A stretch of 64,000 nucleotides of DNA from Escherichia phage BF17. Under the pieces are notes generated by a model. It was not told where the DNA came from. It saw only the letters and a list, made by a program, of their open reading frames with translations, and did not search any database. The stretch is from the sequence record MW822008.1; one strand, written 5' to 3'. Of the stretch, positions 19,391 to 50,147 are shown one piece after another. The number at the start of each line of letters is the position of its first letter. Within the stretch, counting starts at the first letter, position 1. The position numbers were made by a program, and so were the translations under genes.

Positions 19391-19399
19391 TGATATAAT
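19391..19399 (+). promoter_or_regulatory. extended -10 promoter element (TGATATAAT)
   Basis: TGaTATAAT; the same element recurs at 31100, 34706, 47045, 50105. Confidence 0.4.
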
Positions 19400-19920
19400 G
19401 TATATAGAAAATGACAACGGACATTGAAAAATGGACACTGAGAACCTACTTCTCTTGAAAATGTAAAGGATAGATGAGCTTTACCGTTGTAGCGAACAGC
19501 AGAAGAAACCTGTTAGAGTACTGGCATTCAAACAAACACGATGTAAGACCACGAATCACGGCGACACGGCTGTATAAAGAACTCCGATAAGCATACAGAG
19601 AGTTCCTAGATAGATGTATAAGGTTCGCACCTTACCAGATTTGCTAAGGGAGTTCAAGAATAGCGGACGCAATTTTTACAAGAAAGTTGCGTCCAAAATT
19701 TGAGAACAAGTACTACTTTGATCGAATAGAGTTAGTACTGAGTGCTGTTGATGAAAAGACCAGCGACCGTTGCATATGACTGCGATAGAGAGAAACCGAG
19801 CAACCCGCTTTCGCTCTCTAAATTTTGGTACAAGAAAGATCCGTCCAAAATTTGAGAAATTCGCAATTCGATAATATCCGATGCCATCATCGTCAAGAGA
19901 GACTTAATTGTCTCTTTTTT
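19400..19920 (+). ncRNA. candidate non-coding RNA locus (GC-richer island, no long ORF)
   Basis: About 0.5 kb with no ORF of 60 aa or more, visibly higher GC, 8-bp perfect hairpin GGACGCAA/TTGCGTCC at 19665-19694, direct repeat at 19690 and 19841, terminator at 19898-19920. Confidence 0.3.
19898..19920 (+). terminator. intrinsic terminator
   Basis: AGAGAC-ttaatt-GTCTCT followed by TTTTTT. Confidence 0.5.
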
Positions 19921-20060
19921 ATTACCTTCATTCCCCTGCGGGGGGATGTAATAGTCCTCAACAAATCCCGTCAAGTTTTTAAAGTACATTATCATTTTCA
20001 GAAGGAACTAGTTTACGAAGTAAACGCAGTGACTTCTTGAGTTACGAGAGAACGAAGTGA

Positions 20061-20489
20061 ATGAGTAACACAACGAAAATATCCGATAAATCCGAATTAA
20101 CACAAATGTTATTCAAAGAATATTTTGAGTTTCAGATAAAAGACGAACATCAATTACCACAGCAATATTTGAAAAGAATTAAAGATCCGTCAGTAATTAC
20201 TAAAGAAACTAATTTTTATAATAGTATTTTGGATTTCGTTAAATCAGTTCATACAACAAGACCTATTGTAGTTTTGTTTTTTGATAAATCTATTCCTTTA
20301 GTAGTTCCTGAAAATGTATTTTTTATTTCAGAAACTGATTTAAATAATCAAAGTACTGTAAGTAGATTAAGAAATTGCTTACTTGTAGTATGTGATTCTT
20401 CTTTGTATAATAACAGAATACTATGGGATAGAAGTAAACGCAATGCAGTTTCGGAAATGAATCCTGAAATTACCTTTATTATTAACTAA
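20061..20489 (+). CDS. hypothetical protein (142 aa)
   Basis: ORF track; ATG start. Confidence 0.5.
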   Translation: MSNTTKISDKSELTQMLFKEYFEFQIKDEHQLPQQYLKRIKDPSVITKETNFYNSILDFVKSVHTTRPIVVLFFDKSIPLVVPENVFFISETDLNNQSTVSRLRNCLLVVCDSSLYNNRILWDRSKRNAVSEMNPEITFIIN

Positions 20490-20521
20490 ATAATAAGAGA
20501 ATAACTCTAAGGAGAGATATT

Positions 20522-20962
20522 ATGGAAGATATTAATGATTTACGACACGTAATGGACTTTATCGGAAGTACTGAAGAAGATAATTCATATGATGAAGTAC
20601 TATTAACTTTTATTGAAAATAGTTTGTTTTTAAGTTCTGCTGCACATAACTGGCACTTACAATGTCATTTTTATACAAAGCATTTACAATTAGATGAACT
20701 ATATAAAGAATTACCAGAATATGTAGACGCATTTGTTGAAGGTATCATGAATAATCGTGGTGCTTTGCAAGTTGGGACTGGTAATAGTTATCGTTTTACA
20801 CCAATTGAAGATTGTGTACCAATTCTTGAAGAATATGTTGAGCAATGCAGAGCAATTCATGATATGCTTGAAGAATCGGGTGATTACGGCAGTGTAAACA
20901 CATTAGAAGATATTATGAGTTTTGTTGAAGGAACACTTTACAAACTTAAAGTTTTACAATAA
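20522..20962 (+). CDS. hypothetical protein (146 aa, acidic)
   Basis: ORF track; GGAGAG RBS upstream. Confidence 0.5.
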   Translation: MEDINDLRHVMDFIGSTEEDNSYDEVLLTFIENSLFLSSAAHNWHLQCHFYTKHLQLDELYKELPEYVDAFVEGIMNNRGALQVGTGNSYRFTPIEDCVPILEEYVEQCRAIHDMLEESGDYGSVNTLEDIMSFVEGTLYKLKVLQ

Positions 20963-21010
20963 ACTATATGGTGAGTCGCTATGACTCTCCTTTTCTTTTG
21001 GAGAAATAAT

Positions 21011-21628
21011 ATGAAATCGCATGAGTTAGCAAAATTACTACTATCTCAACCAAATCTAGAAATTTATCATTATGATGCAGAGAGTGACTTGCATTATCAG
21101 AATTTTGATAATAGATTAATGGTTACACCATCTGGTATTTTCACAACGGTAAAACCTACATCAGTTTCTGAAAATGTACTTACACCATACGAAACCCCCC
21201 TCTTGGGTCATGTGCAAATTTTCTTTAAGGATGGTACTATTACTCCAAAATTGGAGGGTTCACATATTCAAACTGTTCTTAGCTTAGAATATGGGTTGGT
21301 ATTTAACATTCCTTATGAAAAGCCAATTGTTTTATTAGGTAAAAATAAATCAACACAATTCTCTAATCAACATGCTGTTTGTTATACATCTGATGATATT
21401 GATTTCATTTCAGTACTGACAGAATATGATCCTAATACTTGGCATGAAACATGGGAAAATATGTCATATGATGAAGCAATTGAATGTGGTAAAAATTTAG
21501 CCAAAATGTTATTTCCACCGAAAAAAGAACTTTCACAAGAACAAAATGAATCATTTTCTAAAGATTTTCCTGATTCTGAATTCAATGTTAAAGTATCACC
21601 TTCTATGATTGATAAAATTGAAAAATAA
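21011..21628 (+). CDS. hypothetical protein, paralog family B member 1
   Basis: Start set to ATG 21011 (GGAG RBS; ORF track start 20981 lies inside a hairpin). N-terminus MKSHELAKLLLSQPNLEIYH parallels MKAKDLAALLLQNPEMEVYH at 22364. Confidence 0.5.
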   Translation: MKSHELAKLLLSQPNLEIYHYDAESDLHYQNFDNRLMVTPSGIFTTVKPTSVSENVLTPYETPLLGHVQIFFKDGTITPKLEGSHIQTVLSLEYGLVFNIPYEKPIVLLGKNKSTQFSNQHAVCYTSDDIDFISVLTEYDPNTWHETWENMSYDEAIECGKNLAKMLFPPKKELSQEQNESFSKDFPDSEFNVKVSPSMIDKIEK

Positions 21629-48553: not shown

Positions 48554-48574
48554 TAATTAAAAAGAGTGTTGACA

Positions 48575-48605
48575 AGAAGGATACCACATGGTATCCTTCT
48601 TTTAT
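48575..48605 (+). terminator. intrinsic terminator
   Basis: Perfect 11-bp hairpin AGAAGGATACC-acat-GGTATCCTTCT followed by T-rich run; TTGACA hexamer directly upstream. Confidence 0.65.
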
Positions 48606-48628
48606 CTTAACTAAACGAGGAAATACAA

Positions 48629-50038
48629 ATGTCAGATAAACGTTTCAGTGATGTTACTCCGGCTCTCCAGAAAGAATGTCAAGATCGTCTGATCTTAGCT
48701 CGCACATCTTTAATGCTAACATTCCCATTCTTTGGTGTACTGGCTTCTCGTCTGCGTCCAGTTGCAAACAATACATGGTGTCGTACTTTGGCAGTAGATG
48801 GTAAGCATTTATTCTACAACGTAGAATTCATCATGGGTATTCAGGACCAATCCAAAAAGACCGCATACGAAGAAGCAATTCGTGAGAAACATCCTGAAGT
48901 AACTGAAGAACAACTTAAAGAAATGACAGAAGGTTTGACTGATGAAAACCTGATTGCAGTTATCTGTCATGAGATTCTTCACTGTGCATATGACCACTTC
49001 TTGCGTCGTGGTATGCGTGACCCGCAGCGTTATAACCGTGCTGCTGACTATGCAATTAACCAGATTCTTGTTCGTGATAAAATTGGTAAAATCCAAAGCC
49101 AATGGCTGTACGATAAAAAGTACGATGGCATGACTGCTGAAGAGATTTATAACATTCTCGAAGAAGAAGATAAGCAGGATCAAGACGGAGAAGGTGAAGG
49201 TAACCCACAGGCTGGTAGTGGTGAGGGCGAAGGTAAATCACGTGGTACTTTTGGCGATATCAAAGATGGTAAAGGCAAAGGTACAACAATTGACCAGCAT
49301 GACGTTCCACAAGAAGGTCAAGAGGGTGGTTCAAGTGAGAAACAAAAACGTGATTATATGGATGATTTCAAAACAGCAATGATGAATGCTGCTCGTGCAG
49401 GTGGTACTCCTGCTGAAATCGCACGTATGATTAACAACTTCAAAGAACCAAAGATCGACTGGCGTTCTAAACTTCACCGCACGCTACGTAGCTGGTTGAA
49501 GTCTGACGCAACTTATCAAAGTCCTAATCGTCGTTCATGGGGTGCTGGTTTTGGTAGTACTGGTTCATTCTACGGGAATCCAATCTTCCCTGGCATGAAA
49601 CCTGATGATGATATTGATATTGCAATTGCACTAGATGCATCCGGTTCTATCTCTGAAGATATGCTCCGTGATTTCATCAGTGAAGTACTGGGTATCACTA
49701 AGCAGTTTAAACAATTTAAAATCCGTATCATGACGTTCGATACTGAAGTTTATACTGTAAAAGATTACAAAACTGGTGAAGAGAGTAAGATTCTTGAATA
49801 TCCAGTGAAAGGTGGTGGTGGTACTGACTTTGAAGCAGTATGGGTTCATATGAAGCATGACAACTATAAGCCAAAACAGCTTATTATGTTTACTGATGGT
49901 GAGCCGTGGCAGTCATGGGGCGATCCTGATTACTGTAAGACACTGTTTGTTATCCACAGTAATCCTAACAAACAAGCACCATTTGGTGAAACTGTACACT
50001 ACGAATATGAAGCTGACAAAAAGCGTCAACGTAGCTAA
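48629..50038 (+). CDS. VWA-domain protein with N-terminal HExxH metallopeptidase-like motif (DUF2201-like)
   Basis: HEILHCAYDH zinc-binding-like motif; MIDAS motif in DIAIALDASGSIS; immediately downstream of the MoxR-like ATPase. Confidence 0.65.
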   Translation: MSDKRFSDVTPALQKECQDRLILARTSLMLTFPFFGVLASRLRPVANNTWCRTLAVDGKHLFYNVEFIMGIQDQSKKTAYEEAIREKHPEVTEEQLKEMTEGLTDENLIAVICHEILHCAYDHFLRRGMRDPQRYNRAADYAINQILVRDKIGKIQSQWLYDKKYDGMTAEEIYNILEEEDKQDQDGEGEGNPQAGSGEGEGKSRGTFGDIKDGKGKGTTIDQHDVPQEGQEGGSSEKQKRDYMDDFKTAMMNAARAGGTPAEIARMINNFKEPKIDWRSKLHRTLRSWLKSDATYQSPNRRSWGAGFGSTGSFYGNPIFPGMKPDDDIDIAIALDASGSISEDMLRDFISEVLGITKQFKQFKIRIMTFDTEVYTVKDYKTGEESKILEYPVKGGGGTDFEAVWVHMKHDNYKPKQLIMFTDGEPWQSWGDPDYCKTLFVIHSNPNKQAPFGETVHYEYEADKKRQRS

Positions 50039-50050
50039 GTACTAAATAAT

Positions 50051-50081
50051 GAGAACGGAAAATTCCGTTCTCTACTTTTTT
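50051..50081 (+). terminator. intrinsic terminator
   Basis: Perfect hairpin GAGAACGG-aaaatt-CCGTTCTC followed by TTTTTT. Confidence 0.7.
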
Positions 50082-50147
50082 CAGCGGGACAGCTTGGAAA
50101 AAGGTGATATAATTATATTTGTAACAACATACATGGAGAGTATTAAA

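Follow-up and report, generated by a model that had tools for sequence, protein, structure and literature searches.

Extended -10 promoters with a lineage-specific -35 hexamer in Asteriusvirus jumbo phages, and a candidate phage sigma factor for their recognition

Introduction

Promoters described as 'divergent RpoD-like' have been predicted in Pectobacterium phage CBB (Buttimer et al. 2017, PMC5259590), and the same class is attributed to Cronobacter phage GAP32 in the work of Abbasifar et al. 2014, as cited in that paper. The present analysis concerns promoters of this general kind in Escherichia phage BF17, a Rak2-like jumbo coliphage of the Asteriusvirus group. The DNA analysed is a stretch of 64,000 nucleotides (nt) of sequence record MW822008.1, called the window below, and the element in question is built around the 9-mer TGATATAAT, an extended -10 box. 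These promoters belong to the same clade as those of CBB and GAP32 and likewise combine a canonical -10 with a non-canonical -35 box before DNA-synthesis genes. The overall layout is shared as well, with early RpoD-like promoters carrying an UP-like element, a divergent class, and late promoters of the ATAAATA type. They differ in that the -35 box is G(G/A)GACA here and not TGAAACG, and the base at -13 is A or C and not G. Moreover, the CBB paper and the GAP32 work as cited in it draw no link to the recognition helix of a phage sigma factor or to a noncoding RNA. The promoters are thus a new member, or lineage variant, of a kind already predicted, while the correlation between sigma factor and -35 box and the RNA family described below seem to be new parts. 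No promoter analysis was found in the searchable papers on Asteriusvirus and RaK2.

Three further systems invite comparison. The extended -10 promoters of Escherichia coli also have TG at -15/-14 followed by TATAAT and can work with a poor -35; the TG is contacted by sigma region 3.0, and the phage sigma considered here retains region 3. Unlike them, the phage promoters show a specific hexamer other than TTGACA at an invariant 16-bp gap, phage-wide and varying with lineage. The middle promoters of T4 resemble them in being a second class in time, in which a sigma70-type -10 is combined with a phage-specific box before replication and nucleotide genes, and a gp55-type late sigma follows; however, no MotA box is present here, the box position is different, and there is a full RpoD-like sigma that T4 lacks. 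The closest parallel in mechanism would be Bacillus phage SPO1, where successive phage sigma factors (gp28, then gp33/34) redirect the host core enzyme, although the -10 and -35 boxes of SPO1 middle and late promoters are unrelated to those described here, where the -10 still follows the host consensus and the differences are confined to the -35 and the -13 base.

The extended -10 motif and its upstream hexamer

The preliminary description of the window had placed TGATATAAT upstream of genes at 19391, 31100, 34706, 47045 and 50105, and TGTTATAAT at 46953, and all six coordinates were recovered by motif search. As an inventory the list was incomplete: the five intergenic copies were right, and the window holds nine exact copies. 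All nine lie on the + strand and none on the - strand, against an expectation of 1.84 +/- 1.28 and a maximum of 5 in 100 shuffles. The enrichment of TGNTATAAT was weaker (14 observed vs 6.95 expected). Generic sigma70-like matches showed no overall enrichment in window scans (91 vs 103, 90 vs 89 and 61 vs 63 expected from shuffles), thus the signal sits in specific motifs only. Since the promoter-like totals did not rise above the shuffles, the route of a generic sigma70 and terminator scan was dropped and the specific motifs were used.

At all six listed sites the TGn at -15/-14 precedes TATAAT in the form of an exact TGATATAAT or TGTTATAAT. An extended -10 makes a -35 match dispensable. The -35 position of these sites was occupied by TTGACA with a 16-bp gap in two cases (46934 and 47026) and by GGGACA, a match in four of six positions, in three others (19372, 31081 and 50086); no -35 was found for the site at 34706. 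The combination GGGACA-N13-TGATATAAT has three matches in the window, where 0.02 would be expected. Promoters of this type, with G(G/A)GACA and an extended -10, are called class M in this work. The two hexamers stand a fixed 16 bp apart, and the consensus reads t-G(G/A)GACA-N12-G-TG(A/C)TATAAT-G. The copies of the motif and the elements standing next to them were the following.

19372 to 19399, + strand: class M promoter GGGACA-N13-TGATATAAT, predicted to drive a structured noncoding RNA and not a protein gene.
31081 to 31108, + strand: class M promoter GGGACA-N13-TGATATAAT, before a cassette of Nudix, glutaredoxin-like, phosphatase and peptidyl-tRNA hydrolase genes.
50086 to 50113, + strand: class M promoter GGGACA-N13-TGATATAAT, before a cassette that ends with thymidylate synthase.
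34706 to 34714, + strand: extended -10 TGATATAAT alone, before a small open reading frame (ORF) and a dNMP kinase gene.
46934 to 46961 and 47026 to 47053, + strand: tandem promoters TTGACA-N13-TGTTATAAT and TTGACA-N13-TGATATAAT, 92 bp apart, both matching in 12 of 12 positions and carrying the TG.
47060 to 47184, + strand: leader with a long hairpin and a U-run (z = -3.3), upstream of the MoxR-like ATPase gene (47225).
47156 to 47184, + strand: third promoter-like site, TTTACT-N17-TATAAT, with its -35 within the 3' side of the leader hairpin.
11698 to 11706, 23425, 41301 and 44641, + strand: copies of TGATATAAT within long ORFs, without a -35 partner.

The fEgEco12 counterparts of the copies at 23425, 41301 and 44641 fall within annotated coding sequences, and the four ORF-internal copies are probably due to chance or codon usage and are not promoters. 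At 34706 the -35 position is taken by the 3' arm and T-tract of a terminator, without GGGACA. The tandem promoters form a 92-bp repeat. The leader behind them is far better conserved with respect to phage phAPEC6 than the promoter region on its 5' side, and it could be a small RNA or an attenuator.

Apart from the -35 position, GGGACA or GGACA was also seen in a hairpin stem at 28331-28336 and three times 3' of the 19391 promoter, at 19413-19437 (GACAACGGACATTGAAAAATGGACAC).

Distribution over the genome

The whole genome of the close relative fEgEco12 was assembled. Exact TGATATAAT occurs there 40 times on the + strand and 6 times on the - strand, and 23 of the + copies have an (N)RGACA-type hexamer at the exact distance. 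A genome-wide scan with a position weight matrix, which had been proposed as a check in the preliminary description, was run on this genome and returned 53 sites on the + strand and 2 on the other. The annotation of the record places 25 of the 40 exact + copies, and some 34 of the matrix sites, between genes. The noncoding fraction of the genome is only about 8-10%, and the intergenic copies are enriched approximately 8-fold over it. The hexamer counts over 33 sites were G23/T8, G18/A11/T4, G29, A33, C28 and A30 for the six positions, with a full TTGACA at only four of the 33. The -10 box typically lies 28-45 nt before a start codon, on the coding strand. The intergenic sites of this motif are very probably promoters.

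The approximately 34 intergenic class M copies of fEgEco12 are all situated between 58 and 318 kb, and none was found in the first 50 kb. The genes that follow them include the clamp, SSB (with two tandem promoters), the gene after UvsW, primase, a RecB-like exonuclease and topoisomerase II; in the window they are the Nudix-to-Pth2 and the thymidylate synthase cassettes, while the dNMP kinase cassette has the extended -10 only (34706). The features of the divergent class are thus present, a canonical -10 with a conserved non-canonical box at a fixed distance at 33-34 intergenic sites, and so is its location before genes of DNA synthesis and nucleotide metabolism, away from the early region. 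It is probable that the intergenic TGATATAAT sites form a separate, non-early class. The suggestion that the motif marks early genes did not hold, since the early region uses a separate promoter family and the TGATATAAT class serves replication, nucleotide-metabolism and late sigma genes and a noncoding RNA.

The assignment of the late sigma gene to this class depends on its start. A class M site at 190986-191018 falls within the annotated 5' end of fEgEco12 g336 (190974-191912). Since the profile of the gp55-like late sigma family matches only amino acids 36-310 of the g336 ORF, it is most likely that the gene truly begins downstream of the promoter, and the annotated start is probably about 35 codons too far upstream.

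Conservation of the two boxes in related phages

The identity to phAPEC6 in the promoter stretches compared was 84-89%. The phAPEC6 orthologs of 31081-31108 and 50086-50113 have exact GGGACA and TGATATAAT with diverged 13-nt spacers, and the tandem pair 46934/47026 and the junction at 34706 are also kept there. Since phAPEC6 is 99.6-100% identical to the window around the 16722 and 19391 sites, it was uninformative as an outgroup for these two, and fEgEco12 and the paralogous copies were used instead. The fEgEco12 ortholog of the 19372-19399 promoter keeps both boxes with a different spacer.

Eight orthologous promoters, among them those of the clamp, SSB, primase and exonuclease genes, were compared with their counterparts in GAP32, Yen9-04 and RaK2. 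TGnTATAAT is kept in all of these phages and the upstream hexamer is lineage-specific: GAP32 and Yen9-04 have (T)GAAAC(G/A), and RaK2 has TTGAAC(A/G) and a gap that is slightly longer. At -13 the lineage studied here favours A or C, and GAP32 and Yen9-04 favour G. The published CBB/GAP32 box TGAAACG is not the box of the present lineage, which has G(G/A)GACA at orthologous promoters; it is thus a lineage variant and not the same motif.

Early and late promoter families

In the terminal repeat of fEgEco12 (1-20993 = 353741-374733) there are numerous short ORFs. Each of them has a promoter to itself, which belongs to a different family, named class E here. Its signature is AGTAC-TTG(A/C)(C/A)A-N16-TATAAT-TTTACATCAAGGGG. 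The family is very uniform: an A-rich stretch with AGTAC, then TTGCAA or TTGACA, a 16-bp gap, TATAAT and gTTTTACATCAAGGGG. The gap ends in CTG or GCG, so the TGn extension is missing. There are 18-22 copies, all in 0-21 kb except two at 309 and 324 kb. When the window was scanned for the class E signature no copy was found, and none of the listed sites carries class E flanks. The left end of the terminal repeat (fEgEco12 1-1688) is a stretch of 1.7 kb without annotated genes; a class-M-like GGGACG-N13-GGATATAAT was noticed there at about 280 and an early-type promoter at about 366-393.

The late motif ATAAATA, already predicted for CBB and GAP32 (PMC5259590), was found in the window 35-57 nt upstream of structural genes.

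35703 to 35709, + strand: late-type ATAAATA before the tail sheath gene.
38769, + strand: late-type ATAAATA before the tail tube gene.
42479, + strand, and 54600, - strand: late-type ATAAATA before structural genes.

The structural genes here thus do not use TGATATAAT. As first stated, the observation of sigma70-like promoters and terminators in the window was routine phage annotation. Three promoter families can now be separated in 350-kb phages for which no transcript maps were found, and the consensus should be useful for the engineering of these phages and for operon prediction.

The phage RpoD-like sigma factor and a possible cascade

The phage sigma, the fEgEco12 g519 homolog, is a sigma70-family protein of 322 amino acids, and regions 2 and 3 are recognised in it by Pfam. 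Among solved proteins its best relatives are SigB, SigA, RpoS and RpoD; the alignment extends into region 4, and the protein has a region-4-like helix-turn-helix. This sigma was found in every Rak2-like genome. According to the fEgEco12 paper Gp519 is absent from Ecwhy_1, but a tblastn search finds it there with 99.7% identity, thus Ecwhy_1 cannot serve as a natural knockout. The identity of the fEgEco12 sigma to those of phAPEC6, RaK2, GAP32 and Yen9-04 is 59, 39, 37 and 33%, respectively, compared with 84, 81, 69 and 62% for SSB, so the sigma evolves much faster. The putative recognition helix is near-identical in fEgEco12 (TARSSLHRKYSEAM) and phAPEC6 (SRSSIHRKYSEAM), both with GGGACA, whereas RaK2 (VRGTLHYKFSTAL) has a different one, as do GAP32 and Yen9-04 (SKATLSRRYN...). 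By an approximate alignment over three lineage groups, the -35 hexamer appears to track the putative recognition helix of the phage sigma.

The following model is proposed. The E. coli core RNA polymerase with a sigma70-family factor would initiate a few bases downstream of the class M -10, and the extended -10 would supply most of the binding energy. A phage-encoded determinant would most likely recognise the conserved -35 hexamer, which is not that of sigma70; the best candidate for this reader is region 4 of the phage RpoD-like sigma (the g519 homolog). As a whole, a second, non-early promoter class with a -35 most likely read by a phage-encoded determinant is the explanation we moderately favour. 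Taken singly, the evidence that a phage-encoded determinant reads the -35 is evenly balanced, and its identification with the RpoD-like sigma is tentative.

In fEgEco12 the sigma gene lies downstream of an early-type promoter at 304507, and this, together with the class M promoter before the gp55-like late sigma gene, suggests a cascade. Host sigma70 would transcribe class E, including the gene of the phage sigma; the phage sigma would transcribe class M, including the late sigma gene; and the late sigma would transcribe the ATAAATA genes. The full three-step version, in which the phage sigma reads a host-type extended -10 together with a lineage-specific -35 and the strongest class M promoters drive the structured RNA, is a possibility that we regard as rather unlikely as a whole. 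In such a cascade Asteriusvirus would use G(G/A)GACA as its -35, Mimasvirus and Eneladusvirus GAAAC(G/A), and Alcyoneusvirus TTGAAC. It is predicted that exchange of the -35 hexamer or of sigma region 4 between genera should switch promoter use.

A number of points weigh against this reading. Literature searches turned up neither transcripts nor mapped starts from this phage group. What the sequences show directly is the motif with its enrichment, strand, position, conservation and distribution over the genome; the timing and the sigma assignment are inferred. A perfect TGnTATAAT with GACA is likely usable by E. coli sigma70 alone, so class M might be active as soon as infection begins. Only three lineage groups underlie the link between the sigma helix and the -35, the alignment of the helix to sigma70 region 4.2 is approximate, and Pfam makes no region 4 call. 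The hexamer frequencies are partly circular, as the class M list was obtained in part with a matrix seeded on its own motif. The site at 34706 has no -35 match, those at 46934 and 47026 with canonical TTGACA may belong to a different, host-type class, and the data would agree with a MotA-like activator and sigma appropriation just as they do with a phage sigma.

Alternative explanations

The simplest alternative, which was also the preliminary interpretation (recognition of early genes by host sigma70), takes these sites for ordinary host sigma70 promoters, strong, early and independent of the -35 through the extended -10, with G(G/A)GACA as a degenerate TTGACA. The sigma70-type architecture with extended -10 was borne out, and that host sigma70 itself is the factor is uncertain. 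In its favour, TGnTATAAT matches the E. coli consensus for an extended -10, GACA makes up the last four bases of TTGACA, four sites have the full TTGACA, and the related phage PA5oct needs the host RNA polymerase, its production being rifampicin-sensitive (PMC7318152). Against this stands the composition of the hexamer, whose first two positions are mostly G or A and neither random nor T, and its replacement by GAAAC(G/A) or TTGAAC in sister genera that also infect enterobacteria. The hosts are all enterobacteria, and region 4.2 of sigma70 should be essentially identical among them; since the hexamer changes with the phage genus, a host-only explanation leaves this change unaccounted for. In addition, the true early region has another, far more sigma70-like family with an A-rich upstream element, and the genes downstream of class M are those of replication, nucleotide metabolism and the late sigma. 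We consider host sigma70 alone to be a rather unlikely explanation.

A T4-like appropriation would keep host sigma70 on the -10, with an AsiA/MotA-like pair remodelling region 4 and the activator binding G(G/A)GACA. A good -10, a box foreign to sigma70 at a fixed distance and replication genes downstream are found in T4 middle promoters too, and Iyer et al. described group 2 jumbo phages with both kinds of sigma, gp33 and sometimes AsiA. However, the MotA box (a/t)(a/t)TGCTT(t/c)A, centred at -30, was not found in the aligned sites, not even as TGCTT; the box of class M occupies -35 to -30 with a 16-bp gap instead of being centred at -30; and the phage has a complete RpoD-like sigma without another assigned role. 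Judged by the promoter sites and the sigma gene, such a mechanism is improbable.

On a third view the 9-mer would result from AT-richness and codon usage, or would be a DNA signal other than a promoter. This view applies only to the coding copies (4 of the 9 in the window and 15 of the 40 in the genome are ORF-internal without a -35 partner, and generic sigma70-like matches are not enriched) and can practically be dismissed for the rest, given the approximately 8-fold, strand-specific intergenic enrichment 28-45 nt before start codons, the partner hexamer at an exact distance, and the footprints of conserved boxes against diverged spacers in phAPEC6 and other genera.

A structured noncoding RNA behind the 19391 promoter

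In the approximately 650 nt after the 19391 promoter no convincing ORF was found. The region corresponds to one copy of an RNA family.

19405 to 19980, + strand: multi-copy structured noncoding RNA of about 0.55 kb, with an internal terminator-like hairpin at about 19893-19915 followed by a T-run, and a 3' hairpin CCCCTGCGGGGGG.

Four loci were located in fEgEco12 (59816-60420, 110595-111290, 195693-196330 and 307082-307720). Three of these, at 59.8, 195.7 and 307.1 kb, are paralogs 70-74% identical to the window stretch, and each starts with a top-scoring class M promoter. A blastn search returned 251 places in 71 phage records, all Rak2-like and from nine host genera, and a pattern scan of IMG/VR gave 19 further loci. 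A genome typically carries 3-5 copies; in RaK2-type Klebsiella phages 2 were detected. TGnTAtAAT and the -35 of the respective lineage lie upstream of nearly every copy, and one copy lies just 3' of the sigma gene in both fEgEco12 and RaK2. In an alignment of 20 sequences 84 pairs were predicted, 48 of them with compensatory double changes. Pairing was observed in 95.4% of the alignment cells, compared with 40-45% when the 3' partners were slid, and the covariation score was 0.42, which none of 500 shuffles reached, vs 0.05-0.08 in the control. The internal terminator-like hairpin is absent in two of the four paralog types, and further conserved sequence follows the hairpin.

Explanations of the ORF-poor stretch by a tRNA, a tmRNA or an Rfam family were sought and nothing was found: no Rfam 15 family reached the gathering threshold in the whole window, and a permissive scan of 19350-20100 gave only chance-level matches (E > 2). 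Homology to the four noncoding RNAs of PA5oct defined by RNA-seq found no support, since the profile search yielded only 4.9 bits (for ncRNA004) and no invariant core motif. A hammerhead-like reading of GAUGAG...CGAA, made by eye, was also abandoned, as a position required to be invariant covaries as a base pair and there is no Rfam match.

The RNA thus represents a strongly covarying, multi-copy family that is missing from Rfam. With GOLLD, ROOL and similar RNAs it shares a length of several hundred nt, many covarying helices and phage carriage; it differs from them in having no Rfam 15 match and in its several copies within each genome. Dispersed RNA copies behind middle-type promoters recall the primer transcripts of T4 oriF/oriG and ColE1 RNA II, and by this analogy an origin or primer RNA, or another core function, would fit; this is speculation. 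It was also observed that public records overlay the RNA with small 'hypothetical protein' ORFs, some of them on the wrong strand, so several of these annotations call for correction.

Terminator-promoter junctions

Intrinsic terminators were defined as G+C-rich hairpins followed by a T-run on the transcribed strand; by this definition terminators are predicted at 9928-9951, 16752-16775, 34667-34697 and 50051-50072. The promoters TTGACG-N17-TATAAT at 9940 and TTGACA-N17-TATAAT at 16722, earlier described as overlapping or abutting terminator hairpins, indeed do so. The junctions of the window are as follows.

9928 to 9968, + strand: terminator-promoter fusion, with the hairpin at 9928-9951, TTGACG at 9940-9945 and TATAAT at 9963-9968.
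16722 to 16783, + strand: promoter TTGACA-N17-TATAAT (16722-16750), then hairpin (16752-16775) and T-run.
28299 to 28364, + strand: promoter TTGACT-N17-TATAAT (28299-28327), then hairpin (28328-28355) and TTTTCTTAT.
34667 to 34714, + strand: terminator (34667-34697), then extended -10 (34706-34714), a junction kept in phAPEC6.
50051 to 50113, + strand: terminator hairpin (50051-50072), then class M promoter (50086-50113) 13 nt later.

Two layouts can be distinguished. In the first (9928/9940, 34667/34706 and 50051/50086) the terminator precedes the promoter and its T-tract ends upstream of or in the spacer, so that incoming transcripts would stop and a new one would start 20-40 nt later. In the fusion at 9940 TTGACG lies in the loop and 3' arm of the hairpin and the T-tract is the spacer. 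In the second layout (16722/16752 and 28299/28328) the promoter comes first. The -10 of the 16722 promoter ends one base 5' of the hairpin and the predicted start falls inside the 5' arm; the promoter's own transcript would lack a full stem and escape termination, while upstream transcripts would stop. Read-through of this kind by the embedded promoters at 16722 and 28299 would follow from their geometry. In phAPEC6 the 28299 promoter keeps TTGACA and TATACT.

The five junctions of the window are thus real, but they are not general for the TGATATAAT class. A general terminator-promoter design for class M was rejected, as a terminator lies directly upstream in only 4 of the 34 copies; this is enriched relative to 2.25% of random windows and does not amount to a rule. 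Late structural genes with ATAAATA motifs stand between the class M cassettes, and the terminators at the five junctions would insulate the units.

Five near-identical terminator-promoter fusions of the form GGGTTGACttcgGTCAgCCC-TTTT-TGC-TATAAT were found at 315-327 kb of fEgEco12, with the same design as window 9928-9968. The cassette aaaGGGTTGACttcgGTCAgCCCtttt-TGC-TATAAT-cATTTCATCAAC was seen at 315208, 318802, 321845, 326467 and 327050 and also at 307060-307080, and its -35, TTGACT, is inside the terminator stem-loop.

Other features of the window

Positions 30000-50000 of the window are 99.4% identical to Escherichia phage WPEC5 and 99.0% to fEgEco12, and about 85% identical to phAPEC6 and other PBECO4/121Q-type phages; the Rak2-like jumbo myophages of Klebsiella, Salmonella, Erwinia and other hosts are more distant relatives of this stretch. 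The G+C content across the window is 34-42%. Gene names were transferred from the fEgEco12 annotation. The genes lie on the + strand up to about 52.5 kb, and tail-fibre genes then follow on the - strand. The + strand carries genes of metabolism (anaerobic ribonucleotide reductase, thymidine kinase, CCA-adding enzyme, Nudix hydrolase, peptidyl-tRNA hydrolase), those of the neck, sheath, tube and other virion proteins, and the MoxR-like ATPase and thymidylate synthase genes.

Window positions 16290-17210 and 19340-20270 are 99.6-100% identical to phAPEC6, while the adjoining parts reach only 84-89%. These jumps mean that the genome is a recent mosaic of the WPEC5/fEgEco12 and PBECO4/phAPEC6 sublineages.

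As in the case of the late sigma gene, the start of the Nudix hydrolase ORF is probably elsewhere than annotated: the probable start is the ATG at 31153 (MRYSCGIIFYRDGQ...), and not the annotated position equivalent to 31185 (window 31153-31185, + strand). With the start at 31153, TGGTATAAT at 31165 lies inside the coding sequence and is not a promoter.

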